From the sequence record MN850590.1: a stretch of 64,000 nucleotides of DNA, one strand, 5' to 3'. Both the position numbers and the translations under genes were made by a program. The notes under the pieces are model-generated. The model had not been told where the DNA came from and ran no database searches. It worked only from the letters and a program-made list of their open reading frames with translations. Origin of the DNA: Escherichia phage moha. Each line of letters starts with the position of its first letter. The first letter of the stretch is position 1. This document shows, piece by piece, positions 14,667 to 45,655 of this stretch.

Positions 14667-17378
14667 ATGAAAGAATTTTACTTAACGGTTGAACAGATTG
14701 GTGATTCAATTTTTGAACGTTACATCGATTCTAATGGCCGTGAACGTACTCGTGAAGTAGAATATAAACCATCACTGTTTGCTCATTGTCCAGAAAGTCA
14801 GGCTACGAAATATTTCGATATCTACGGTAAGCCGTGTACTCGTAAGTTGTTCGCCAATATGCGTGATGCCTCCCAATGGATTAAACGCATGGAAGATATC
14901 GGTCTTGAAGCATTAGGTATGGACGATTTCAAATTGGCGTATTTGTCTGACACTTATAACTATGAAATCAAATACGACCATACAAAAATTCGTGTGGCTA
15001 ACTTCGACATCGAAGTAACATCTCCAGATGGGTTCCCTGAGCCGTCACAAGCAAAACATCCGATTGATGCTATCACCCATTATGACTCAATTGACGACAG
15101 GTTCTACGTATTTGATCTATTGAATTCTCCATATGGTAATGTAGAAGAATGGTCTATTGAAATCGCTGCTAAGCTTCAAGAACAAGGCGGTGATGAAGTT
15201 CCATCCGAAATTATCGATAAAATCATTTATATGCCGTTCGATAACGAAAAAGAATTGTTGATGGAATATCTCAACTTCTGGCAACAGAAAACTCCTGTCA
15301 TTTTGACTGGATGGAACGTTGAGTCATTTGATATTCCATATGTGTATAACCGAATCAAGAATATTTTTGGCGAATCTACTGCGAAACGTTTATCACCACA
15401 TCGTAAAACTCGTGTTAAAGTTATCGAAAACATGTATGGTTCTCGTGAAATCATTACATTGTTCGGTATCTCTGTTCTTGATTACATTGACCTTTACAAA
15501 AAATTCTCTTTTACCAATCAACCGTCGTATTCTCTGGATTACATTTCAGAATTTGAATTGAACGTTGGTAAACTGAAATATGACGGCCCTATTTCTAAGC
15601 TTCGTGAAAGCAATCACCAACGATATATTTCTTATAACATTATCGACGTGTATCGTGTATTGCAAATTGATGCTAAGCGTCAGTTCATCAACTTGAGTTT
15701 GGACATGGGTTATTATGCTAAGATACAGATTCAATCTGTGTTTAGCCCAATTAAAACATGGGATGCTATTATTTTTAATAGCCTTAAAGAGCAGAACAAG
15801 GTGATTCCACAAGGTCGTTCTCACCCTGTTCAACCTTATCCTGGCGCTTTTGTTAAGGAACCTATTCCAAATCGATACAAATATGTAATGAGTTTCGACC
15901 TTACATCTCTGTATCCAAGTATTATTCGCCAAGTGAATATTAGCCCAGAAACAATAGCAGGAACGTTTAAAGTAGCTCCATTGCATGATTATATTAACGC
16001 AATCGCTGAACGTCCTTCTGATGTGTACAGTTGTTCTCCTAACGGCATGATGTATTATAAAGACCGTGACGGTGTTGTTCCAACTGAAATCACTAAGGTC
16101 TTTAATCAACGTAAAGAACATAAAGGTTATATGCTTGCGGCTCAACGTAATGGTGAAATAATTAAAGAGGCACTGCATAATCCTAATCTTTCTGTTGACG
16201 AACCATTAGATGTTGATTATCGTTTCGACTTCAGTGATGAGATTAAAGAAAAGATTAAAAAGTTGTCTGCTAAATCTCTTAATGAAATGTTGTTTAGAGC
16301 TCAACGTACTGAAGTTGCAGGTATGACTGCACAGATTAACCGTAAATTGCTTATCAACTCACTTTATGGTGCACTTGGCAACGTTTGGTTCCGTTATTAT
16401 GATTTGCGTAATGCTACTGCAATCACAACATTCGGTCAAATGGCTTTACAGTGGATTGAACGTAAAGTTAATGAATATCTGAATGAAGTTTGTGGTACAG
16501 AAGGTGAAGCTTTCGTTCTTTATGGTGATACAGACTCTATTTACGTATCTGCTGATAAAATTATCGATAAGGTTGGTGAATCTAAATTCCGTGATACCAA
16601 CCATTGGGTAGACTTCTTAGATAAGTTCGCACGTGAACGTATGGAACCGGCTATTGATAGAGGTTTCCGTGAAATGTGTGAATACATGAACAATAAACAA
16701 CACTTAATGTTCATGGACCGAGAAGCTATCGCTGGTCCTCCGCTCGGTTCTAAAGGTATTGGTGGATTCTGGACTGGTAAGAAACGTTATGCATTAAACG
16801 TTTGGGATATGGAAGGTACTCGTTACGCTGAGCCTAAACTCAAAATCATGGGTCTAGAGACTCAGAAATCTTCGACTCCTAAAGCAGTACAGAAAGCTCT
16901 TAAAGAATGTATTCGTCGTATGCTTCAAGAAGGTGAAGAATCATTACAAGAATATTTTAAAGAGTTTGAAAAAGAATTCCGTCAATTGAATTATATTAGC
17001 ATCGCGTCGGTATCTTCTGCGAATAACATTGCTAAATATGACGTTGGTGGATTCCCTGGTCCTAAATGTCCGTTCCATATTCGTGGAATTCTGACGTATA
17101 ACCGGGCTATCAAAGGTAATATTGATGCTCCACAAGTTGTAGAAGGTGAAAAAGTATATGTTCTGCCTTTACGTGAAGGAAACCCATTCGGTGATAAATG
17201 TATCGCATGGCCTTCTGGTACTGAAATCACAGATTTAATTAAAGACGACGTACTTCATTGGATGGACTACACTGTTCTCCTTGAGAAGACATTTATTAAA
17301 CCACTTGAAGGATTCACATCAGCAGCGAAACTCGATTACGAGAAGAAAGCATCTCTGTTCGATATGTTCGATTTTTGA
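14667..17378 (+). CDS. 43: DNA polymerase gp43 (family B), RB69-type
   Basis: 903 aa; sequence matches RB69 gp43 as recalled from structural literature; exo motif FDIE, pol motifs DxxSLYPS and YGDTDS. Confidence 0.97.
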   Translation: MKEFYLTVEQIGDSIFERYIDSNGRERTREVEYKPSLFAHCPESQATKYFDIYGKPCTRKLFANMRDASQWIKRMEDIGLEALGMDDFKLAYLSDTYNYEIKYDHTKIRVANFDIEVTSPDGFPEPSQAKHPIDAITHYDSIDDRFYVFDLLNSPYGNVEEWSIEIAAKLQEQGGDEVPSEIIDKIIYMPFDNEKELLMEYLNFWQQKTPVILTGWNVESFDIPYVYNRIKNIFGESTAKRLSPHRKTRVKVIENMYGSREIITLFGISVLDYIDLYKKFSFTNQPSYSLDYISEFELNVGKLKYDGPISKLRESNHQRYISYNIIDVYRVLQIDAKRQFINLSLDMGYYAKIQIQSVFSPIKTWDAIIFNSLKEQNKVIPQGRSHPVQPYPGAFVKEPIPNRYKYVMSFDLTSLYPSIIRQVNISPETIAGTFKVAPLHDYINAIAERPSDVYSCSPNGMMYYKDRDGVVPTEITKVFNQRKEHKGYMLAAQRNGEIIKEALHNPNLSVDEPLDVDYRFDFSDEIKEKIKKLSAKSLNEMLFRAQRTEVAGMTAQINRKLLINSLYGALGNVWFRYYDLRNATAITTFGQMALQWIERKVNEYLNEVCGTEGEAFVLYGDTDSIYVSADKIIDKVGESKFRDTNHWVDFLDKFARERMEPAIDRGFREMCEYMNNKQHLMFMDREAIAGPPLGSKGIGGFWTGKKRYALNVWDMEGTRYAEPKLKIMGLETQKSSTPKAVQKALKECIRRMLQEGEESLQEYFKEFEKEFRQLNYISIASVSSANNIAKYDVGGFPGPKCPFHIRGILTYNRAIKGNIDAPQVVEGEKVYVLPLREGNPFGDKCIAWPSGTEITDLIKDDVLHWMDYTVLLEKTFIKPLEGFTSAAKLDYEKKASLFDMFDF

Positions 17379-17418: not shown

Positions 17419-18054
17419 ATGAAAACTACTCCTATTACTATCGCTATTGACGCAATCGTAAAACAAGCTTCTTCTTTGGCTACTATGGCCAAAGTAATTA
17501 GTCAAAACCCTGCTCGTTATAATGCTATTCTAGAAACTCTTCGACGCCCAGGACTTAGCAATTATGAAAGCCGAGTAATTATTACAGGTGTTGGTAAGAA
17601 TGCTAATATTGCAACTAAAGCTTCTGAGACATTTGCTTCACTCGGTATCCCAAGTATGTACTTGAACACCGGGCATTATTCTCACGGTGATGCAGGATTC
17701 ATTGCGCCTAATGATGTGTTGATTCATATTAGTCGTTCTGGTAAGACCGAAGAAATGATAGGTGTTGCTAAACATCTTCGTATGATTCGTCCGAACGTCA
17801 AACAGATTCTGTTGCATTGTAACCCAGACATTCCACAAGAAAATGAAGCCCTTTTTGATTACTCTTTCTGTACAGGCATCGCAGTAGAGGTTGACGAGAA
17901 CTCTTTAGCTCCGACTATGTCTACTACATTGTTGTTAGCGCTTATCGATACGTTTGCTATCAACCTTTCGTCTGAGCGTGGATTTACCTCTAATGACTTC
18001 CTTAAGTTCCACCCTGGTGGTGCACTAGGTGCCATGTTACGAGGCGAACAATGA
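17419..18054 (+). CDS. SIS-domain sugar-phosphate isomerase (KdsD/GutQ-like arabinose-5-phosphate isomerase, no CBS domains)
   Basis: ITGVGKNANIA, HISRSGKTEE, LAPTMSTT, HPGGALG blocks co-linear with KdsD SIS domain. Confidence 0.8.
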   Translation: MKTTPITIAIDAIVKQASSLATMAKVISQNPARYNAILETLRRPGLSNYESRVIITGVGKNANIATKASETFASLGIPSMYLNTGHYSHGDAGFIAPNDVLIHISRSGKTEEMIGVAKHLRMIRPNVKQILLHCNPDIPQENEALFDYSFCTGIAVEVDENSLAPTMSTTLLLALIDTFAINLSSERGFTSNDFLKFHPGGALGAMLRGEQ

Positions 18055-18194
18055 AAGCAATAACAATAGGACTTTTACTATTGATGCTTGTCATGACTAT
18101 CTACTGGAGCTTAACAGCTCCAGTAATGATTCCAACACTTGTAATTGGATGGATTATGATTGGACTACAAGCAAAGTATGAATGCTTTAACTAG
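18051..18194 (+). CDS. Hypothetical 47-aa hydrophobic peptide
   Basis: ATGA overlap with SIS gene stop; hydrophobic throughout; below ORF-track cutoff. Confidence 0.25.
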   Translation: MKAITIGLLLLMLVMTIYWSLTAPVMIPTLVIGWIMIGLQAKYECFN

Positions 18195-18207
18195 AATAGT
18201 GTACAAT
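18183..18207 (+). promoter_or_regulatory. MotA-dependent middle promoter upstream of nucleotidyltransferase-kinase gene
   Basis: MotA box TGCTTTA (18183-18189), 12-nt spacer, -10 TACAAT (18202-18207). Confidence 0.55.
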
Positions 18208-18235
18208 ACTCCTACTTACCAATGAGGACTTCAAC

Positions 18236-19921
18236 ATGAAAAAAGCTGTTATTCTTGGTGCTGGATTGGCAACTCGTTTATATCCAATAACGCATCATAT
18301 TCCTAAGGTGCTTGTTAACTATAAACAAGACACTATTCTGAGCAATTTGTATACAATTTATTCTGACCTTGGCGCAGATGAAATTATTGTAGTAGTTCAT
18401 TCAAAATTTGCTGAAACTGTTCGAGCTTATTGTGAGCAAGAAGGGTTCAATGTGACTATTCGTACAGTTGATGAAGCGTATGGATCTGCTTATGCTCTTG
18501 CTAAATTACACAAAGATTTAGACGGCCATAATGTAATTGTTAACTGGTGTGATATTATTCCTGATTTTGGTTCATGGTCTTGGAATGTTAACGCAATCTA
18601 TGTTAAAGGTGACGAATGTCGATATAATTTCGACGGTGAAAATATCACTAACGTAGGTTCAACAGGTGGTAATGTTGTAGGAATTTATCAGTTCAAAGAC
18701 TGGGAATTCTATATGGGTTCTACTGATGAAGAAATTCATGAATACTGCAAAGGACGTGATTTCGTAGAATTCCTTTACGCCAGCGCATTCAATAAATCAG
18801 AGCTTATGAATCTAATTGATTTAGGTGATATGCCTAAACTTGAAAAGGCTCATGAAGTTCGTGAACTTAATCGTAGTTTTAATGCAGTTGAAATTGGTGA
18901 AGAAACTGTAACTAAATTCGCATTGACCGAACAGGGTCGAGCTCTTCAGAAAGATGAGATTTCATGGTATCTTAAAGTGAAATCGGATTCAGTTCCTCAG
19001 TTAGTTTCTGTTAATGAAAATAACTTTGAAATGGAACGCATTAAAGGTAAGCCGGCATTTGAATATATTAAATCCAAATCAAGTCTTGCTCGTCCACAAA
19101 TTGTTGATGCAATTTTAGATGCACTGAAATTCAGCACAGACACTTATTTTGTAAGTCCTGAAACTGTTCGTCGTGATTTCACTAAAGAATTCTATACGAA
19201 AGTTATTGATCGTTGTGAAAGCATTCAACCATTGATTGATTCATTTGGTAAAATCACGCATGTGAACTACACTAAGATTGGACGTCTGAAGCCAATGCTG
19301 AAACAAGCTTTAGAACACCTTATTCGTTATCATAACCGTTCTCAGGGGCAGTACTCTGTTATTCACGGTGACCCGAACTTCAGTAATACTATGATTACTG
19401 ATAACGGCGAAGTCAAGTTTATCGACCCTCGTGGATATTTTGGCGAAACCAAGATTTACGGGCCAAAATTGTATGATGAAGCTAAAGTGCTTTATGCTGT
19501 TTCAGGTTATGATGAATTCAATGCTAATCCGACCTGGGGACAGTTTACTATTGATGAAACAACTTGTAATGTGACTATTAACATCAATCCATTAGTTTAC
19601 AAATATGGAAAGATGAGTTCGTTTAACGAGTATCATCATTTGGCAGTGGCAATTATCTGGATTGCATTAGGTGGTTATTTCAAGAATAATCCACTTAAAG
19701 CGGTAGCCGCATATTATAAAGGTATGGAACTTCTGACTAAGCAATTACGTAACATGGGCCGTGTACTTCAGGACGGCTCTATTAGTTATGACGTAGCAGA
19801 ACCTGTAACGGCTACTCTGATTACAAAAAATCCTGGTAAATGGGTACTAACTGATAAAGAAACTGGTGTTTCCTATCGTCCAATCGGTGGCGATATCACT
19901 CATCAATGGGAACGAATCTAA
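18236..19921 (+). CDS. Bifunctional sugar-1-phosphate nucleotidyltransferase / APH-fold sugar kinase
   Basis: N-terminal AVILGAGLATRL nucleotidyltransferase motif; C-terminal HGDPNFSN (HxDxxxxN) and IDPRG kinase motifs. Confidence 0.7.
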   Translation: MKKAVILGAGLATRLYPITHHIPKVLVNYKQDTILSNLYTIYSDLGADEIIVVVHSKFAETVRAYCEQEGFNVTIRTVDEAYGSAYALAKLHKDLDGHNVIVNWCDIIPDFGSWSWNVNAIYVKGDECRYNFDGENITNVGSTGGNVVGIYQFKDWEFYMGSTDEEIHEYCKGRDFVEFLYASAFNKSELMNLIDLGDMPKLEKAHEVRELNRSFNAVEIGEETVTKFALTEQGRALQKDEISWYLKVKSDSVPQLVSVNENNFEMERIKGKPAFEYIKSKSSLARPQIVDAILDALKFSTDTYFVSPETVRRDFTKEFYTKVIDRCESIQPLIDSFGKITHVNYTKIGRLKPMLKQALEHLIRYHNRSQGQYSVIHGDPNFSNTMITDNGEVKFIDPRGYFGETKIYGPKLYDEAKVLYAVSGYDEFNANPTWGQFTIDETTCNVTININPLVYKYGKMSSFNEYHHLAVAIIWIALGGYFKNNPLKAVAAYYKGMELLTKQLRNMGRVLQDGSISYDVAEPVTATLITKNPGKWVLTDKETGVSYRPIGGDITHQWERI

Positions 19922-20307
19922 TGCCCCGTGTAGAAAACATGCTTAATCTTTGTTTTGATGTCGATGATTGCATCACGGAATGGAATAACAATCGTGATTA
20001 CGTGAACTTCAAACCAGACGTCGAAATGGTGTCTGCCATTAATGCCCTGTATGATGCAGGGCATACCATAACGCTTTACACTGCTCGTGGTATGAAGTCA
20101 GTAGGTCCTGGTCGTATAGCAATTGACATTCTCCCAAGTCTGATTCAGAACTTGGAAAACATTGGTTTGAAGTACCATAATTTGCTAACACATAAACCAG
20201 TATATGATTGGATTATCGACGACAAAGCTATGCGTCCTGATGAATTCAAAGCTCTTATGAATAAAGGCGAATTCGAAACATTTAAATCATATAAACCAAA
20301 TCTATAA
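19921..20307 (+). CDS. HAD-superfamily phosphatase (small, KdsC/GmhB-like)
   Basis: Motif I FDVDDCIT, motif IV IIDDK; ATG 19921 overlaps upstream stop (alternative ATG 19906). Confidence 0.6.
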   Translation: MPRVENMLNLCFDVDDCITEWNNNRDYVNFKPDVEMVSAINALYDAGHTITLYTARGMKSVGPGRIAIDILPSLIQNLENIGLKYHNLLTHKPVYDWIIDDKAMRPDEFKALMNKGEFETFKSYKPNL

Positions 20308-20364
20308 TAATTTAAGTAAGACCTGCAAAAACCATCGCATCAATTAACGTGAGATGCAAAAAAA

Positions 20365-21525
20365 ATGAATACTTTTAAAATCGGAACGAATTTTGATTTA
20401 GCTCTTCTTGATAAAATCGTAGAGCTCAATAAAACCTATCCTAATAGCTTGATAAACGAAGTATATGGCTCTACAAGAGAAATGGCTTTTGTAGCAGCCA
20501 GACCTGATTTTAGGCTTCCTGACGTTGACAAAAAGATGTTAGAAGACTACGTTAAACGTTGTAACGAATTAGGTATTTGCTTTAACTATACACTCAACAC
20601 GATAAATCCTGGTTCAAAAAGAGAACTAGTTGAGTGGAAGAAGAAAGCTATTCAGGATTATGTTCAGTATCTTTGGTCAATAGGCGTATGGCGTATTACT
20701 ATCGCTAACCCTGTTGTTATGGAAATTGTTCGTGAAGTCAATAAAGATATTGAGATTGAAGTTTCAACAATTCTACATGTCGATGCTGTAACTCAAATAA
20801 AATACTTGCATGACCAATATAACATCAAAAAGGTCTGTTGCGGAATTCATAAGAACCGTTCAGTTTCTTTCCTGAAGCGTGCAGCAGAGTTTTGCAATAA
20901 GAACAATATAATATTTGAAGTTCTTGTAAATGAGTTCTGTTCTAATGCTGGTAAAGGGTATACAACACATTGTAGCTATCGTGACTCTTGCTATATTTTC
21001 CATAGTACTGATGTTACCGCTGATGATGCTAAATCCTTAAATGGATATCCAATGCAACACTGCATTAAAGCTCGTGATACAGACCCATTTAACTGGCTGA
21101 GAACTCGTTTTGTTCGTCCTCAAGATTTGAAACTTTATAATGATATTGGTATCACTCAATTCAAAGTTTCAGGACGTACAGGTAGCACAGACTACATTTT
21201 GAAAGTTCTTGAAGCATACGCTTCTGAAAAGTTTGAAGGTAATTTGTTAGAACTGTGGAAGCCTTTAGAGACTATTTTCACTCTTGAAAACGAAACTGAG
21301 TTTTCACATACAGTAAATATTGAAACCTCTTTGTTAGATGGCTTTTTAGAAAAAAGGTGGTTCAGACATCCAGATTTCGATTGTGCTAATGAAATCTGCG
21401 GGACGACGTGTACATATTGTGAAAGATATTATAAACGTCAATTATCTAAAAACGGGTTAGCAGAAAACTCTATATCTATTATTGATATAACTAACTCTGA
21501 TGACGCTTTGAGGTACCCGGAATGA
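20365..21525 (+). CDS. Cys-rich putative Fe-S enzyme (family unassigned; U32-like or radical-SAM-like)
   Basis: 386 aa; CX3CX2C (CGTTCTYC) near C-terminus plus internal Cys cluster EFCSNAGKGYTTHCSYRDSC. Confidence 0.55.
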   Translation: MNTFKIGTNFDLALLDKIVELNKTYPNSLINEVYGSTREMAFVAARPDFRLPDVDKKMLEDYVKRCNELGICFNYTLNTINPGSKRELVEWKKKAIQDYVQYLWSIGVWRITIANPVVMEIVREVNKDIEIEVSTILHVDAVTQIKYLHDQYNIKKVCCGIHKNRSVSFLKRAAEFCNKNNIIFEVLVNEFCSNAGKGYTTHCSYRDSCYIFHSTDVTADDAKSLNGYPMQHCIKARDTDPFNWLRTRFVRPQDLKLYNDIGITQFKVSGRTGSTDYILKVLEAYASEKFEGNLLELWKPLETIFTLENETEFSHTVNIETSLLDGFLEKRWFRHPDFDCANEICGTTCTYCERYYKRQLSKNGLAENSISIIDITNSDDALRYPE

Positions 21526-21761
21526 TTTCTAGAAAAACTTTTAACCACCAACTTAATGAAGAGATTTTGACTATGAAACTGAACACTAATGAACAAATTC
21601 TTAAAAAGGCCCTGATGGGCCTTTTTGAAACTAAAGCGGCTAAAGTGATTAAAGAACCTGTTCAATTAGAATACTACGCTGATGCATTTCTTCATAGTGT
21701 TCTTGGAAGTATCGATGCCGAAGCTTTACGTTATATCAATATTGCCAAGAAATTCAAATAA
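21522..21761 (+). CDS. Hypothetical protein
   Basis: 79-aa ORF overlapping upstream stop. Confidence 0.4.
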   Translation: MISRKTFNHQLNEEILTMKLNTNEQILKKALMGLFETKAAKVIKEPVQLEYYADAFLHSVLGSIDAEALRYINIAKKFK

Positions 21762-21802
21762 GCTTTACGAATTGAGTATATAATAATTGTATTGAGGTAA
21801 AC

Positions 21803-22519
21803 ATGGGAAAACATAACACAATGAAATATATCAAAGCCGCAGATTTTCAAACCGCATTTAAAGCAGTCAATCGTGAAATTTTAGAAAACCCGGAATTCGT
21901 AACTGATTCTCGTATTGGACGTTGTAATGAAATTGGGTCTATGACAGTAGTTGTTGACACTCCATCATCATTCAAAATGACCGACCCACGTATTAACCGC
22001 ATCTCTTATGAATATGCCGAAGACTTCTGGAAGTTTATGATTTCTGGTGGTACCAACGCAGAAGAAGCGTTTAAGGCATATCCTAATGTCGCTAAATTTA
22101 TTTCTAAACCAAAATCAGATGTTTTGCCGGCGAACTTCAACACTTTCTATGGTCCTCGCATTGCGGCTCAATTACCAGCTCTTCTAAAAGAACTTAAAGA
22201 GAAGCCTAACTCTCGAAGAGTTGTGTTCCAAATTCTAGAAAGTTCTGATCAGGCTTTGCTTGATTCGGACGAAACGCTTGAATATCCATGTACTGACTCA
22301 GTGACTTATTATATTCGTGATGGTAAGCTTTATACCCACTGTCATATGCGTTCTCAGAACTGTGCTGTTGTTATGCAGTTGGATTTTTATCTCCAAGGAA
22401 AATTACTTCATTATATCGCTAACGAATGTGGTGTAGAAGTTGGTGATTATACTCATACCATGGTAAGTGCCCATGTGTTTGAACGTGATTTTGATTATGT
22501 TAAAGGATTCCTTGACTAA
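21803..22519 (+). CDS. 42: ThyA-fold pyrimidine hydroxymethylase (dCMP hydroxymethylase-like)
   Basis: Candidate nucleophile Cys in EYPCTDSV and HMRSQN block typical of thymidylate synthase/dCMP hydroxymethylase family; position of T4 gene 42. Confidence 0.7.
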   Translation: MGKHNTMKYIKAADFQTAFKAVNREILENPEFVTDSRIGRCNEIGSMTVVVDTPSSFKMTDPRINRISYEYAEDFWKFMISGGTNAEEAFKAYPNVAKFISKPKSDVLPANFNTFYGPRIAAQLPALLKELKEKPNSRRVVFQILESSDQALLDSDETLEYPCTDSVTYYIRDGKLYTHCHMRSQNCAVVMQLDFYLQGKLLHYIANECGVEVGDYTHTMVSAHVFERDFDYVKGFLD

Positions 22520-23418
22520 TGGCTATTTTCCGCGTACCTATCTTGAGTATGCGGTCTTATGAAACTGGACAGTATGCTATCCTTAAGGATGGCAACTTCC
22601 AACTTCATTTGCACCGTGCTAATCCAGGTGATGTGATTACATATCCACGTAATGCATCTGATATTAAAGAATGTGAACGTCTTTTCCCAGAATTTAAGTT
22701 TGTTCCATTATGGTATAAAGATAACGCGTATAACACTCGTAAATATTTCTGGTCTGAAAATGAATTTGTGGTTGATTCATTAATTGCTTATTATGATTGT
22801 GATTTTCTAATCACAGATATCACTGGATATGATGGTGCTTTTGATGTAGAATTCAATTTCAATATCACTGCAGACCCTAATAAACCACGTTTTTATATTG
22901 ACGAATTCTTAAAAACTGATATGTTGTCGGTTAATCGTTCACTTCAAACTACTGTGTTGAATGAACGTCAAAAAGAAGTGCTGGTTAACGCAGGTGCAAA
23001 TGGTAATAAGATTATCGTAACGCAGAAAGTTATACGTCCTTCCATCATGCAGCGTCTTGTAGGTGATTTGGCTCCTATTCATCTAGATGGTATTTTTCAT
23101 CCATTTCGAATTAGTGACCCATGCTATCGTTTTGAACAAGTGGTTGAATGTGCAATTCAATTAGGTCAACCGCTTTATATAACCGATCCAAATAATAGCT
23201 TCGACAGAAATAAGTATCCTGAAGAAGCGTTGATTCGAATTTTTAAACCAACTAAAACTGAGTACTATCAAATTCTTAAAGGACGTCCGAAGATTCAATA
23301 TTTCGAAAATCCTGAAGAAGTATTCCATCCAGGTCTTGGTGAGTTCATCTACTTTAATGCTTTAATTTCTTCGCCGTATAATATACCTAAATACGAAGAT
23401 GTCGTAATCGAGGAATAA
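22519..23418 (+). CDS. Hypothetical protein in the beta-gt slot (candidate DNA-modification enzyme)
   Basis: 299-aa ORF, no recognised motifs; lies where T4 has beta-glucosyltransferase. Confidence 0.55.
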   Translation: MAIFRVPILSMRSYETGQYAILKDGNFQLHLHRANPGDVITYPRNASDIKECERLFPEFKFVPLWYKDNAYNTRKYFWSENEFVVDSLIAYYDCDFLITDITGYDGAFDVEFNFNITADPNKPRFYIDEFLKTDMLSVNRSLQTTVLNERQKEVLVNAGANGNKIIVTQKVIRPSIMQRLVGDLAPIHLDGIFHPFRISDPCYRFEQVVECAIQLGQPLYITDPNNSFDRNKYPEEALIRIFKPTKTEYYQILKGRPKIQYFENPEEVFHPGLGEFIYFNALISSPYNIPKYEDVVIEE

Positions 23419-23419
23419 A

Positions 23420-23968
23420 ATGGCTAAAATTATTTTAGTAGACGGCCCAGATAATGCTGGTAAAACAACTTTCATTAATGACATAATGGAAATTAGTGAA
23501 AGATATGTAAAGATTGATTTCCCTAAACGAACAGTTGATGGACGTTTCGATGTTAAGTCTCGAAATGAAGTTGGCTGTTTCGAAACGATGTTGAATTATT
23601 TAGACCCTACTAAGATTTATCTGTTAGACCGTGGATATATTAGTAACTGGGTTTATGGACGTATTCGACAAGATGCGGACTCGGTTCTTGATGTTTATGA
23701 ACAGGATTATGTTCGTCTTTGCCAAAACCATGATGTGTTCACAATTATTTTAACACGTAACGAAATGACTGAAAGTTTTGAAGACGACCTTATTACTTTG
23801 TCTTCATTCGGTTTTAATACAGTCATTTCACATTTTGAAGAGTTTGCAATTCATAACAAAATCCAAACGTATCAATTACTTAATCATGATGGTGCTAACA
23901 AAGTTATAGGATTTAATGCAAGCGAACGTAATGATTTGATTACAGAAATCATCAAATGGGCTCGTTAA
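23420..23968 (+). CDS. P-loop nucleoside-monophosphate kinase-like protein (Tmk-like)
   Basis: Walker A DGPDNAGKTT; LDRGY...YG resembles thymidylate kinase DRY/lid region. Confidence 0.6.
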   Translation: MAKIILVDGPDNAGKTTFINDIMEISERYVKIDFPKRTVDGRFDVKSRNEVGCFETMLNYLDPTKIYLLDRGYISNWVYGRIRQDADSVLDVYEQDYVRLCQNHDVFTIILTRNEMTESFEDDLITLSSFGFNTVISHFEEFAIHNKIQTYQLLNHDGANKVIGFNASERNDLITEIIKWAR

Positions 23969-24066: not shown

Positions 24067-25239
24067 ATGTCTGATTTAAAATCTCGTCTGATTAAAGCTT
24101 CTACTTCTAAAATGACTGCAGACTTGACTAAGTCTAAGCTGTTTAATAATCGCGATGAAGTCCCTACTCGTATTCCGATGTTGAATATTGCATTAGGTGG
24201 TGCACTGAATGCAGGGTTGCAATCAGGCTTAACTATTTTTGCTGCACCTTCTAAACATTTTAAAACATTGTTTGGACTAACTATGGTTGCAGCGTATATG
24301 AAGAAATATAAAGATGCAATCTGTTTGTTTTATGACTCAGAATTCGGTGCTTCAGAATCTTATTTTCGTTCAATGGGTGTTGATTTAGACCGTGTAGTTC
24401 ATACTCCGATTCAATCTGTCGAACAACTTAAAGTTGATATGACTAATCAGCTTGACGCTATTGAACGCGGTGATAAAGTTATTATCTTTATTGACTCGAT
24501 TGGTAATACTGCATCTAAGAAAGAAACCGAAGATGCATTGAACGAGAAAGTTGTAGGTGATATGTCTCGTGCTAAGGCACTTAAATCTCTGTTCCGCATT
24601 GTGACCCCGTATCTGACTATTAAAGATATTCCGTGTGTTGCAATTAACCATACAGCAATGGAAATCGGCGGATTGTATCCTAAAGAGATTATGGGTGGTG
24701 GTACAGGTATTCTTTATTCTGCCAACACAGTGTTTTTTATCTCTAAACGTCAGGTTAAAGAAGGTACAGAATTGACCGGTTATGACTTCACGTTGAAAGC
24801 AGAAAAATCTCGCACAGTTAAAGAGAAATCTACTTTCCCGATCACGGTTAATTTTGATGGCGGTATTGACCCATTCAGTGGCTTGTTAGAAATGGCAACT
24901 GAAATTGGTTTTGTGGTTAAGCCTAAAGCCGGTTGGTATGCTCGCGAATTCCTTGACGAAGAAACAGGTGAAATGATTCGTGAAGAAAAATCATGGCGTG
25001 CTAAAGCTACTGATTGTGTAGAATTCTGGGGACCTTTGTTTAAACACAAACCTTTCCGAGATGCAATTGAAACTAAATATAAACTAGGTGCTATCTCTTC
25101 TATTAAAGAAGTTGATGACGCTGTTAATGACCTTATTAATTGCAAAGCAACAACTAAAGTTCCGGTTAAAACTTCTGATGCTCCGTCTGCAGCAGATATA
25201 GAAAACGACCTTGACGAAATGGAAGATTTCGATGAATAA
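24067..25239 (+). CDS. uvsX: Recombinase UvsX (RecA-like)
   Basis: T4 UvsX-like N-terminus MSDLKSRLIKASTSK as recalled; Walker A GPSKHFKT. Confidence 0.95.
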   Translation: MSDLKSRLIKASTSKMTADLTKSKLFNNRDEVPTRIPMLNIALGGALNAGLQSGLTIFAAPSKHFKTLFGLTMVAAYMKKYKDAICLFYDSEFGASESYFRSMGVDLDRVVHTPIQSVEQLKVDMTNQLDAIERGDKVIIFIDSIGNTASKKETEDALNEKVVGDMSRAKALKSLFRIVTPYLTIKDIPCVAINHTAMEIGGLYPKEIMGGGTGILYSANTVFFISKRQVKEGTELTGYDFTLKAEKSRTVKEKSTFPITVNFDGGIDPFSGLLEMATEIGFVVKPKAGWYAREFLDEETGEMIREEKSWRAKATDCVEFWGPLFKHKPFRDAIETKYKLGAISSIKEVDDAVNDLINCKATTKVPVKTSDAPSAADIENDLDEMEDFDE

Positions 25240-28323: not shown

Positions 28324-28692
28324 ATGAAAAAATTAATCGCTTTAGCAATGGTATTTGGATTAACCGGATGTGGTGCCCATGGCTTTATCCCTAATAATGT
28401 CGGCCAATTGATTTACAATCCTAATGTTAAACAATATGAACAACCTAAAGTTGAAGTGGAAGACCCGGTTACTGTAGGTAATCGAATGATTCAAGCTGAT
28501 GCCCATGCTCAACGTTATCGTGACTCTGATACTGTAGCATTGTCAAAAGAACAACGCGTTAAAGAACATTGCTTACAGGCTACTGAAATCGCATTCATTC
28601 GCTATGTTGAAACAACTGGCAAAGAGCCTACCCAGAAACAAATCGCGAATAACTACGTCCAGTGTATTGAACGTTTAAACAAATTTAATTAA
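28324..28692 (+). CDS. Predicted lipoprotein
   Basis: Signal peptide with lipobox LTGC. Confidence 0.55.
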   Translation: MKKLIALAMVFGLTGCGAHGFIPNNVGQLIYNPNVKQYEQPKVEVEDPVTVGNRMIQADAHAQRYRDSDTVALSKEQRVKEHCLQATEIAFIRYVETTGKEPTQKQIANNYVQCIERLNKFN

Positions 28693-28753: not shown

Positions 28754-29002
28754 ATGGAATTATTCGTAGCTAGTTCAGTAGCAGTTTTAATCGCAGGTAT
28801 TGGTTCAATCATCATTTACATGTTGCCTTGGGTAATCGCACTTATTCGTGGCACAAAAAGCACAACAGCAATCTTCTTTGTATCTTTACTCTTTAACTGG
28901 ACGATGATTGGTTGGATTGGAACTTTAATTTGGTCTATCGTTGCCGAAAAGAAATCTGCTCAGCAGCCTCAACAAGTAATTATTATTCGCGAAAAAGAAT
29001 AA
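28754..29002 (+). CDS. Small two-helix membrane protein (superinfection-immunity Imm-like candidate)
   Basis: 82 aa, two hydrophobic helices (LPWVIALIRG...NWTMIGWIGTLIW). Confidence 0.4.
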   Translation: MELFVASSVAVLIAGIGSIIIYMLPWVIALIRGTKSTTAIFFVSLLFNWTMIGWIGTLIWSIVAEKKSAQQPQQVIIIREKE

Positions 29003-32041: not shown

Positions 32042-32563
32042 ATGGCACACTTTAACGAATGTTCACAACTTATTTCTGGTGTTGATAAAGCAGAAGAAGC
32101 TTATTTTAATGCTCTGATTCACGAAGATAAAGACCCACTGCAGGTAATGCTTGATATGCAGAAATCTTTACAGGTTCGTCTGGCAAATGACAAGCCTGAA
32201 CATAACAAACATCCTGATGAATTGGTCACTGCTGGCGATGTTGTTGATTGGCTGCGTAATCAGAAAGATTATATTGATGATGAATTCCGTGAACTGCTGA
32301 CTTCACTTGGTGGTATGAGCAATGGTGAAAAAGCCGCTAGCTCTGTATGGAAGCCATGGAAAGCACAACATGCTGAATATCGAAATCGTCGTATCGATGA
32401 ACTGTCTCCTGAAGACCAGCTTGAAATTAAATTTGAAATGATTGATATTCTGCACTTCGTTCTGAACATGTTCCAAGGTCTGGGTCTTTCTGCTGAAGAA
32501 ATCTTTAAACTGTATTATCTGAAGAATGCTGAAAACTTTGCTCGTCAAGACCGAGGTTATTAA
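32042..32563 (+). CDS. 56: dCTP pyrophosphatase gp56 (MazG-like)
   Basis: All-alpha MazG-like sequence with acidic block EDQLEIKFEMIDILHF; position after gene 61. Confidence 0.7.
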   Translation: MAHFNECSQLISGVDKAEEAYFNALIHEDKDPLQVMLDMQKSLQVRLANDKPEHNKHPDELVTAGDVVDWLRNQKDYIDDEFRELLTSLGGMSNGEKAASSVWKPWKAQHAEYRNRRIDELSPEDQLEIKFEMIDILHFVLNMFQGLGLSAEEIFKLYYLKNAENFARQDRGY

Positions 32564-44554: not shown

Positions 44555-45655
44555 ATGAAAGTTATGTTTATCCCATCTCGTGCAGTCCCATTTAACCCAG
44601 AACGTGTACAAGGTGGTCTTGAAGCAGTACATTTAAATGTGTTGAAATATCTTGTGTCCATCGGTGCCGATATTGATTATATTGGTTTTGATAATGACAC
44701 ATTTGGTGATTGGAAGGTTAATCATCATCCTGTTGGTCATCTGACTAAATTCAGTCTAGGTATGAGTTATACTATGGCTCGTAAGATTGTTGAACTAGCC
44801 GGCATCCATGAATACGATTTTGTTGTTACTATGGAACCGACTAAACTAACCGTTCAGGCAATTAAAGACGCAGGTCTCTCTAAAGTTCATAAGAATTTTA
44901 TGGCAACACCATTTGAACCGGTATCTCGTGGCATTGTTCAAATTTGGGACCAGACTATTCAAATTCATAAGAATGGTGGTAAGAGTTATGCTCCTACTAA
45001 AGCCTTCCGTGAATTTGAACGTAAATATTGTTATATGACTTCAGGTCTGACTGACAAAATTGATTATGATTATTGGCGAGCAAATCCTTTGTTTGAAGCC
45101 GAAGATTATCCGGTTATTTGTTTGACTGAAAAGCCAGAAGTTCTTCCGGCGACGGATCTGATTATTAGTGCACAACGTTATGACACTAAAATGCGTCGTA
45201 CTGATGTTGCTCTTGAAGCGATTAAAGCACTAGGCGAAAATGGTGCAGGATACTGTCCAAGCAAATGGGCGCCACCGGCTAAATATCCTGTTATTATTGA
45301 TGCTCCACACAGTGAAATTATGGAACGTCTTAAAACAGCTAAAGCACTTATTAATACGTGTCCTGACACAGGTACGGTAGAGAATAGTTCTATTGAAGCC
45401 ATCTCTAAAGGTGTCCCTGTAATCCAGTTAGTTTTTAAGGATTATCCTCATGCGACATTTGAATACGACCCAGATACTGTGCGTGTAGAAATTGATTCCT
45501 CTACTCCTAAGAAAGAAGTAGTTGCGCTTTACACAAAAGCTGTATTAGAATTCACTGACACATACGAAGCTCGAGTTAAACGTGCTGAAGCAGTATGGAA
45601 GAAGTATAACCGAGATGCAGTTGTTGCGATGTGGGATAAAATCTTCACAGCGTAA
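44555..45655 (+). CDS. GT-B fold glycosyltransferase (candidate DNA sugar transferase)
   Basis: N-terminal MKVMFIPS...GG.E.V and C-terminal ENSSIEAISKGVPVIQ resembling GT-B donor-binding E-x7-E region. Confidence 0.6.
   Translation: MKVMFIPSRAVPFNPERVQGGLEAVHLNVLKYLVSIGADIDYIGFDNDTFGDWKVNHHPVGHLTKFSLGMSYTMARKIVELAGIHEYDFVVTMEPTKLTVQAIKDAGLSKVHKNFMATPFEPVSRGIVQIWDQTIQIHKNGGKSYAPTKAFREFERKYCYMTSGLTDKIDYDYWRANPLFEAEDYPVICLTEKPEVLPATDLIISAQRYDTKMRRTDVALEAIKALGENGAGYCPSKWAPPAKYPVIIDAPHSEIMERLKTAKALINTCPDTGTVENSSIEAISKGVPVIQLVFKDYPHATFEYDPDTVRVEIDSSTPKKEVVALYTKAVLEFTDTYEARVKRAEAVWKKYNRDAVVAMWDKIFTA

Follow-up and report, generated by a model that had tools for sequence, protein, structure and literature searches.

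The arabinosyl-5-hydroxycytosine DNA modification cluster of Escherichia phage moha and a possible oxygen-independent role for its U32-family protein

The DNA between the genes for DNA polymerase (gp43) and UvsX in Escherichia phage moha is almost certainly the gene cluster with which RB69-type (Mosigvirus) phages hypermodify their DNA with arabinosyl-5-hydroxycytosine (ara-5hoC). It occupies positions 17419-23968 of the window, by which we mean the whole 64,000-nucleotide stretch of sequence record MN850590.1 analysed here. This cluster is already known, as gp45-gp55 of phage RB69 and as the Afh pathway of phage HY126, and by itself it adds nothing new. The possible novelty lies in one of its members, a cysteine-rich protein of the U32 family whose gene is accompanied by a chorismate mutase gene in related phages. 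The open reading frames (ORFs) of the interval, and two further pathway genes located elsewhere in the window, are as follows (aa, amino acids):

17419-18054, + strand: SIS protein, 211 aa; homologue of RB69 gp55
18051-18194, + strand: small ORF, 47 aa; homologue of RB69 ORF054c
18236-19921, + strand: fused nucleotidyltransferase/APH-fold kinase, 561 aa; AfhE-like, RB69 gp52:53
19921-20307, + strand: HAD phosphatase, 128 aa; AfhF-like, RB69 gp51; alternative upstream ATG at 19906
20365-21525, + strand: U32-family Cys-rich protein, 386 aa; homologue of RB69 gp50
21522-21761, + strand: small ORF, 79 aa; homologue of RB69 gp49/ORF049c
21803-22519, + strand: ThyA-fold enzyme, 238 aa; homologue of RB69 gp48
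22519-23418, + strand: GT-B glycosyltransferase by its predicted fold, 299 aa; homologue of RB69 gp46:47
23420-23968, + strand: Tmk-like P-loop kinase, 182 aa; homologue of RB69 gp45
32042-32563, + strand: gp56 dCTPase; homologue of RB69p028, 98.8% identical to RB69 gp56
44555-45655, + strand: second DNA arabinosyltransferase; homologue of RB69 ORF003c, outside 17419-23968

The cluster is flanked by the family-B DNA polymerase gp43 (14667-17378, 903 aa) and UvsX (24067-25239), and its base composition matches that of the flanks (GC content 0.34-0.40). An earlier note on this DNA had described seven genes between gp43 and uvsX, mostly linked by overlapping stop and start codons, which read as one arabinose DNA-hypermodification pathway. 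All seven ORFs are in place on the + strand. The overlaps are real as well: ATGA at 18051-18054 and 21522-21525, TAATG at 19921 and 22519, while 23418 and 23420 are separated by 1 nt. Two small conserved ORFs (18051-18194 and 21522-21761) had been missed. Profile searches bear out the family calls made there (SIS, nucleotidyltransferase/APH kinase, HAD, ThyA fold, Tmk-like and a Cys-rich Fe-S candidate). The idea of a single arabinose pathway, entered by conversion of ribulose-5-phosphate to arabinose-5-phosphate and leading to a nucleoside diphosphate (NDP)-arabinose donor, matches the published RB69/HY126 system.

At 95-99% identity the interval matches 154 phage records. All of them are RB69-like Mosigvirus, and Shigella phage JK42 is the best match (98.4%). 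Comparison of the 6.5-kb interval with RB69 gp45-gp55 gives 97.7% identity at the DNA level and 96-100% per protein. Gene content and gene order between gp43 and uvsX are shared with RB69, and in both phages the second glycosyltransferase gene lies between gene 39 and rIIA. The RB69 reference (NC_004928) contains one additional base at each of window positions 18890 (an extra C) and 23063, which accounts for the split ORFs 052/053 and 046/047 of that record. The window carries intact 561-aa and 299-aa ORFs where the RB69 record has these splits, in agreement with the published view that they are sequencing errors (PMC13326640; PMC6024577). As for HY126, the hydroxylase, the HAD phosphatase and the second glycosyltransferase of the window are about 98-99% identical to its crystallised proteins. 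The clusters of Acinetobacter phages DLP3 and Maestro share the core of arabinose-5-phosphate isomerase (API), nucleotidyltransferase/kinase, HAD, ThyA-like, GT-B and Tmk-like proteins at 43-70% identity. They differ in having extra glycosyltransferases (tri-arabinosylation) and in lacking both the U32 gene and a gp49-like ORF.

Arabinose was found on RB69 DNA by Thomas et al. (2018; PMC6024577), who originally named the base arabinosyl-hydroxymethylcytosine (ara-hmC). They noted that a module of eight genes separates polymerase from UvsX. The transferase, they suggested, is ORF003c, and the uridine diphosphate (UDP)-arabinose enzymes are ORF055c and ORF53_52c. Using nuclear magnetic resonance (NMR) and mass spectrometry (MS), Lee et al. 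(NAR 2026; PMC13326640) showed mono- and di-arabinofuranosyl groups ether-linked to C5 via the oxygen of 5-hydroxycytosine. They assigned gp45-gp55, gp3, gp28 and gp159 to the ara-5hoC pathway, and gp56 dCTPase is counted among the pathway members in their Table 1. Mono- and di-arabinosyl deoxycytidine (dC) were seen independently in Mosigvirus NP, where the earlier hydroxymethylcytosine (hmC) assignment is called erroneous (PMC13390438). The base structure, the hydroxylase activity and the AfhE/AfhF steps are published chemistry, established on RB69 and HY126 proteins that are 98-100% identical to those of the window. Nothing speaks against reading the cluster in this way. The chemistry of the modified DNA is known from RB69 and NP. 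The order and donor specificity of the glycosyltransferases are still inferred in the literature, and the DLP3 glycosyltransferases were individually inactive on 5hoC-DNA in vitro (PMC13326640).

The ThyA-fold protein (21803-22519) belongs to the base branch of the pathway. It matches the Thymidylat_synt profile (2e-15) and is about 98% identical to Protein Data Bank (PDB) entries 9IQC, 9IR2 and 9IQU. RB69 gp48 makes 5-hydroxy-deoxycytidine monophosphate (5hodCMP) from dCMP, incorporates 18O from 18O2 and binds flavin; the signature of 5hodCMP synthases is Asn at the position of E. coli ThyA residue 169, together with N177D and L143E (PMC13326640). Two alignments served to place these residues, one made by HMMER against ThyA of S. 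aureus (4DQ1) and the other by BLASTP against T4 gp42. The window protein has E, C, N and D at ThyA positions 143, 146, 169 and 177; in the 4DQ1 alignment these stand against Leu, the catalytic Cys, the Asp of 'RSAD' and the Asn of 'PFN', respectively. T4 gp42, whose sole relative in the window is this protein (25% identity), aligns its 'MRSND' with the window's 'MRSQN', which again puts Asn against Asp at position 169. Since both alignments give Asn169, the protein carries the 5hodCMP-synthase signature and not that of a T4-type hydroxymethylase. By its sequence, it is a flavin- and O2-dependent dCMP C5-hydroxylase.

The sugar branch starts with the SIS protein. It matches Pfam SIS (1.9e-10) and PHROG 5670 'arabinose 5-phosphate isomerase' (2e-116) and is 99% identical to its RB69 counterpart. 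Its match to the KpsF/GutQ NCBIfam model (5e-32) is under the curated cut-off (111.5 vs 203.7 bits). The KdsD model is matched at 1.9e-30 over positions 47-202 of 328 only, with 106 bits against an equivalog cut-off of 505. In KdsD and GutQ (about 320-330 aa) two CBS domains in tandem come after the SIS domain, whereas the window protein, at 211 aa, has the SIS domain only. It is a SIS-only relative of KdsD/GutQ, and its predicted activity is that of an arabinose-5-phosphate isomerase.

The 561-aa protein matches NTP_transferase at residues 3-99 (8e-10), as well as models of sugar-1-phosphate nucleotidyltransferases. Its C-terminal part resembles the APH/choline-kinase-like domains: there are weak matches to Fructosamin_kin, EcKL and RIO1 at residues 344-409, and the catalytic-loop motif HGDPNFSN...FIDPRG is visible. 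It also matches PDB 1JYK (2e-05) and is 100% identical to RB69 across the alignable parts. Its architecture is that of the bifunctional kinase/uridylyltransferase AfhE of HY126, as described in the work cited in PMC13326640. The HAD protein is about 98% identical to PDB 9IQW (1.8e-85), is related to 1XPJ, and contains the DVDD motif I; the capsule-phosphatase model TIGR01689 is matched at 1.6e-13, under its curated cut-off (50.7 vs 162 bits).

According to He et al. 2026, as cited in PMC13326640, AfhE of HY126 phosphorylates arabinose-5-phosphate (Ara5P) to arabinose-1,5-bisphosphate (Ara-1,5-P2), AfhF takes off the 5-phosphate, and AfhE then forms UDP-arabinofuranose (UDP-Araf). The main text of Lee et al. 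adopts this bisphosphate route, although two labels left in their Table 1 read 'dephosphorylates Araf5P to Ara' and, for the next step, 'phosphorylates Ara to Araf1P' (PMC13326640). By analogy with HY126 as cited there, the C-terminal kinase domain of the 561-aa enzyme would convert Ara5P to Ara-1,5-P2, the HAD protein (19921-20307) would convert Ara-1,5-P2 to arabinose-1-phosphate (Ara1P), and the N-terminal nucleotidyltransferase domain would produce UDP-Araf from Ara1P and UTP.

Two glycosyltransferases are expected to complete the modification. The 299-aa protein had been left unassigned, and indeed it has no sequence-level match in Pfam, NCBIfam or PDB. Its single-sequence AlphaFold model was unusable (mean confidence score pLDDT 36.8), so it was remodelled from a 51-sequence alignment, giving pLDDT 94.9 and a predicted template modelling score (pTM) of 0.89. 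This model has the GT-B fold; the top Foldseek match is MshA (3C4Q), and the top matches are the same as those published. According to the model, the protein is a GT-B glycosyltransferase, and it is the putative first (base-proximal) arabinosyltransferase. The second DNA arabinosyltransferase is the 366-aa product of 44555-45655, whose gene is flanked by topoisomerase gene 39 and rIIA. RB69 ORF003c is its homologue at 99% identity, and it matches PDB 9IQZ/9IR0, 'phage HY126 glycosyltransferase (with UDP)', at 2e-248; its role is as published (PMC13326640; PMC6024577).

The last gene of the cluster codes for a Tmk-like protein with a GPDNAGKT Walker A P-loop. It belongs to PHROG 761 'thymidylate kinase' (1.6e-45), the dTMP-kinase model is matched at the P-loop only (E 0.005), and the sequence search of PDB gave no significant match. 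The published AlphaFold2 model of gp45 resembles thymidylate kinases (PMC13326640). Possibly, this kinase helps to convert 5hodCMP to 5hodCTP.

Taken together with the published work, the pathway most probably runs as follows. The gp56 dCTPase would clear dCTP and supply dCMP, so that the modified nucleotide replaces dC. The ThyA-fold flavoenzyme would hydroxylate dCMP at C5 with O2, and the resulting 5hodCMP would be raised to 5hodCTP by the gp1-type dNMP kinase (published; encoded outside the window), possibly also by the Tmk-like kinase. The polymerase would then incorporate 5hodCTP in place of dC. In parallel, the SIS isomerase would form Ara5P from ribulose-5-phosphate, and the kinase, phosphatase and nucleotidyltransferase activities would lead through Ara-1,5-P2 and Ara1P to UDP-Araf with no free arabinose intermediate. 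Finally, the 299-aa GT-B protein would add the first arabinose to the 5-hydroxyl and the ORF003c-type GT-B protein (44555-45655) the second.

Several details of the earlier note have to be changed in the light of this scheme. It had taken a 5-hydroxymethyl-pyrimidine as the acceptor and the ThyA-fold protein for a hydroxymethylase; the acceptor is 5-hydroxycytosine with ether-linked arabinose (PMC13326640; PMC13390438), and with Asn at ThyA position 169 the enzyme is predicted to be a hydroxylase. The order it proposed, in which the HAD enzyme releases free arabinose for the kinase, gives way to the route through Ara-1,5-P2 attributed to HY126 (cited in PMC13326640). It was a reasonable guess, because the same order is printed in Table 1 of Lee et al. 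The pathway is also not confined to the interval, as the second transferase is encoded at 44555-45655. A glycosylated 5-hydroxymethylcytosine system, in which Ara5P would lose its phosphate, the free sugar would gain a new one at C1 and, once activated, would be attached to hmC, could appeal to the original name ara-hmC (PMC6024577), to the homology with T4 gp42 and to the free-arabinose steps of that table, but it is highly improbable given the C5 ether link and the 18O2 labelling of gp48 hydroxylation (PMC13326640), the rejection of the hmC assignment as an error (PMC13390438), Asn in place of the gp42 Asp at position 169, and HY126 enzymes that, as cited in PMC13326640, work via the bisphosphate.

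The protein encoded at 20365-21525 had been described as a Cys-rich, putative Fe-S protein. Cys-rich it is, and more precisely it belongs to the U32 family (Pfam Peptidase_U32, PF01136: 7e-11, 42.2 bits vs a gathering cut-off of 22.4, residues 94-286). It is the most conserved protein of the locus, with 79-87% identity to its counterparts in seven other genera. The corresponding values are 40-71% for the nucleotidyltransferase/kinase, 41-72% for the Tmk-like kinase and 48-68% for the 299-aa GT-B protein; in the comparison with Thanatos-2 only, UvsX and gp41 are each 68% identical. All 13 of its cysteines are invariant in eight phage genera, and ten are invariant in 36 sequences with identity down to 46%. 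They form two clusters, spaced C192-x10-C203-x5-C209-x23-C233 and C340-x4-C345-x3-C349-x2-C352. Sequence and profile searches against PDB returned nothing except one spurious match to BIM1.

A tblastn search found the U32 gene in 221 records at 80-100% identity, and the hosts among the matches listed are Enterobacterales or Shewanella. The nucleotidyltransferase/kinase gene occurs in 373 records. Of these, 57 belong to phages of Acinetobacter, whose members are strict aerobes, and all 57 lack U32. Among the phage records searched, U32 occurs only in genera with the ara-5hoC cluster. A strict rule tying U32 to the oxygen lifestyle of the host was considered and rejected, as JS98, a Dhakavirus that infects E. 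coli, possesses the core pathway and lacks U32. Some phages of facultative anaerobes can therefore do without it.

More distant U32 relatives (48-58% identity) were found in low-GC (25-35%) phage-like contigs, one of them 466 kb long:

L014:6001-7086: distant U32 relative
L016:6001-7083: distant U32 relative
L015:6001-7098: distant U32 relative

Their neighbours include genes for dCMP-deaminase-family proteins, thymidylate kinase, NT5C, dNK, PolIII-alpha/UDG and SSB. Two of these contigs have, directly after U32, the gene of a conserved protein that is about 250 aa long, has no Pfam family and is 44% identical between them. No ThyA-like or chorismate mutase gene was found near these relatives.

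A clue to a possible function of U32 comes from its neighbour in other phages. A gene for an AroQ chorismate mutase (Pfam CM_2, 33-47 bits vs a cut-off of 27) adjoins U32 in all seven of the other genera sampled. These were represented by phages Entb_45, PhiKpNIH-6, PM2, phiR1-RT, Pm5461, X20 and Thanatos-2, with the following chorismate mutase ORFs:

L005:6158-6397: chorismate mutase
L006:3658-3903: chorismate mutase
L007:3825-4067: chorismate mutase
L008:3875-4168: chorismate mutase
L009:3899-4285: chorismate mutase
L010:3658-4002: chorismate mutase
L011:5134-5391: chorismate mutase

In Shewanella phage Thanatos-2, the genes for U32 and chorismate mutase have shifted as a pair to a different place within the cluster. 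A single tblastn query recovered the phage chorismate mutase from at least 51 records, none of them Mosigvirus, and in all the matches listed it stands beside U32 and/or ThyA-like genes.

Chorismate mutase makes prephenate, from which UbiU/UbiV obtain their oxygen. These two proteins are members of the U32 family, as are RlhA, required for 5-hydroxycytidine in 23S rRNA, and TrhP, required for 5-hydroxyuridine in tRNA. All of them are Fe-S dependent, O2-independent and prephenate-requiring. The phage protein shares PF01136 with them, its many invariant cysteines would be consistent with Fe-S binding, and RlhA also shares the base chemistry of the cluster, as it concerns 5-hydroxycytosine, in rRNA. 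It differs from them in forming a separate subfamily of about 360-390 aa with an extra C-terminal CX4CX3CX2C. Because the published hydroxylase needs O2 and the hosts often grow without it, an O2-independent route through U32 is the simplest reading. We infer, at about an even chance, that U32 is an Fe-S, prephenate-dependent, O2-independent hydroxylase making 5-hydroxycytosine when the host is without oxygen. In favour of this count the strong conservation of U32 and of its cysteines, the chorismate mutase gene beside it and the joint move of the two in Thanatos-2, its absence from the Acinetobacter phages, and the deoxynucleotide genes around its distant relatives. Phages of facultative anaerobes would then possess two routes to 5-hydroxycytosine, an aerobic one via the ThyA-fold enzyme (flavin/O2) and an anaerobic one via U32. 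Prephenate for the latter would come from the phage's own chorismate mutase in most genera, whereas Mosigvirus would draw on PheA/TyrA of the host. Such a scheme would parallel the pairs TrhO/TrhP and UbiIHF/UbiUV.

A number of observations weigh against this role. The Cys spacing of the phage protein differs from the CX6CX15CX3/4C of other U32 families, in which (as in the UbiU/UbiV variants) four conserved cysteines bind a [4Fe-4S] cluster. It scores 18.5 bits against the UbiU model, whose cut-off is 440, and only 5 of 36 U32 relatives match the TrhP model, at about 4e-4 and far under the cut-off; at the equivalog level of the profile models, phage U32 is not orthologous to any characterised member of the family. 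JS98 infects E. coli without it. In the window itself, tblastn with seven phage enzymes found no chorismate mutase, and the chorismate mutase hidden Markov model gave noise over the 589 stop-to-stop segments of the window (best score 13.4 bits over three fragments). In Table 1 of Lee et al., RB69 gp50 is labelled 'sugar or heterocycle reductase', a row given without rationale (PMC13326640).

One alternative is that U32 acts on RNA, hydroxylating tRNA or rRNA of phage or host in the manner of TrhP or RlhA, or on host metabolism by manipulating the supply of prephenate/carboxy-S-adenosylmethionine (cx-SAM), and is merely parked in a plastic region. All the characterised nucleic-acid U32 factors do act on RNA, and T4-like phages encode tRNAs. 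JS98 and the Acinetobacter phages manage without U32, and the gp43-uvsX interval is a known hot spot of gene insertion (PMC6024577). Against this, U32 is embedded in the cluster and translationally coupled to its neighbours, stays inside the modification cluster even when rearranged, as in Thanatos-2, and is confined to ara-5hoC genera among the phage records searched. The 48-58% relatives, too, adjoin deoxynucleotide enzymes and not RNA enzymes. We therefore regard an RNA or metabolic role as unlikely.

Alternatively, U32 could be a redox enzyme, for instance a reductase, with the sugar or the heterocycle as its substrate, or it could be a genuine peptidase. The label of RB69 gp50 would fit the former and the historical annotation of the family as collagenase/peptidase the latter, and the Cys spacing is atypical for U32 hydroxylases. 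Against this, the term reductase occurs nowhere else in the text of Lee et al. (PMC13326640), and the route from ribulose-5-phosphate to UDP-Araf, as cited there from HY126, has no reduction step. The linkage to chorismate mutase is explained by the use of prephenate and not by either of these roles, to which we assign a low probability.

The words U32, peptidase, chorismate and prephenate are absent from the text of Lee et al. (PMC13326640). In the searchable literature, which does not cover He et al. 2026 and Mahler et al. 2025, we found no link of U32, chorismate mutase or prephenate to arabinosylating phages. That the role of U32 as an anaerobic hydroxylase is both true and not already described in these two papers we consider somewhat less likely than not.

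The two small ORFs of the cluster deserve a comment. The 79-aa ORF (21522-21761) is translationally coupled to U32 by the ATGA overlap, has no cysteines and belongs to PHROG 8601 (5e-52); searches of Pfam, NCBIfam and PDB gave no match. The ORF is conserved in Mosigvirus, and PM2 and phiR1-RT have counterparts of it (45-50% identity) in the space between U32 and chorismate mutase. Because an ORF of the same size at that site in Entb_45 is a chorismate mutase, the 79-aa ORF was tested as one as well, and was rejected (BLASTP E 6.8, besides the empty domain searches). The start of the 47-aa ORF (18051-18194) overlaps the stop codon of the SIS gene. It has no Pfam match and is annotated in NRG-P0074; its RB69 annotation reads 'similar to T4 42-imm intercistronic region'. 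It is 100% identical to RB69, 64% to Entb_45 and 57% to the T4 42-imm intergenic stretch, and is also conserved in PM2 and JS98. The match to T4 suggests an unannotated small gene shared with that phage.

In T4, the gene order at this place is 43-imm.1-imm-42-beta-gt-segA-uvsX, so the T4 comparison drawn in the earlier note was correct. Of its proposal that the cluster stands in place of T4 imm and beta-gt, the part on beta-gt holds, as no homologue of this gene was found in the window (alpha-gt was not searched for by sequence). The window thus contains neither a gp42-type Asp169 hydroxymethylase nor a beta-gt homologue, both of which belong to the T4-type glucosyl-hmC system. The imm gene is another matter. 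Homologues of T4 imm (28754-28999, 65% identity) and imm.1 (28330-28677, 33%) are located downstream of gene 41, which means that imm was relocated and not replaced by the cluster. The two modification systems differ in both parts of the modified base. T4 attaches a hydroxymethyl group via methylene-folate and then glucose, while the RB69-type phages attach a hydroxyl via flavin and O2 and then arabinofuranose. It is because arabinofuranose is used in place of glucose that the RB69-type system has a dedicated NDP-sugar pathway.

In relatives, homing endonuclease genes are inserted at varying positions of the cluster: between the nucleotidyltransferase/kinase and HAD genes in NRG-P0074 (L001:5488-6249), and, as a segB-like gene, between HAD and U32 in phiR1-RT and X20 (L008:1852-2490 and L010:1852-2490). 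The cluster of the window contains no such insertion; a segA-like match (49% identity) is located at 1754-2092. A scan of the cluster for sigma-70-like promoters and terminators was uninformative (22 sites vs 26.8 in shuffles). TATAAT boxes are present in three intergenic gaps of the cluster, and no conclusion is drawn from them.

It is established that the ara-5hoC cluster underlies the resistance of RB69-like phages to many restriction enzymes and to other nucleic-acid-targeting defences, and that it also explains why these phages and T4 exchange no genes. If the proposed role of U32 is true, the prephenate route would account for the modification in anoxic habitats, as these phages prey on gut Enterobacterales. 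The U32 hydroxylases would gain their first substrate that is a DNA precursor. The route would also offer a tractable system with a soluble nucleotide for a chemistry that, in the case of RlhA and TrhP, has so far been without in vitro reconstitution. The 48-58% identical relatives near deoxynucleotide genes would then extend the same chemistry to other DNA modifications in large low-GC phage contigs.

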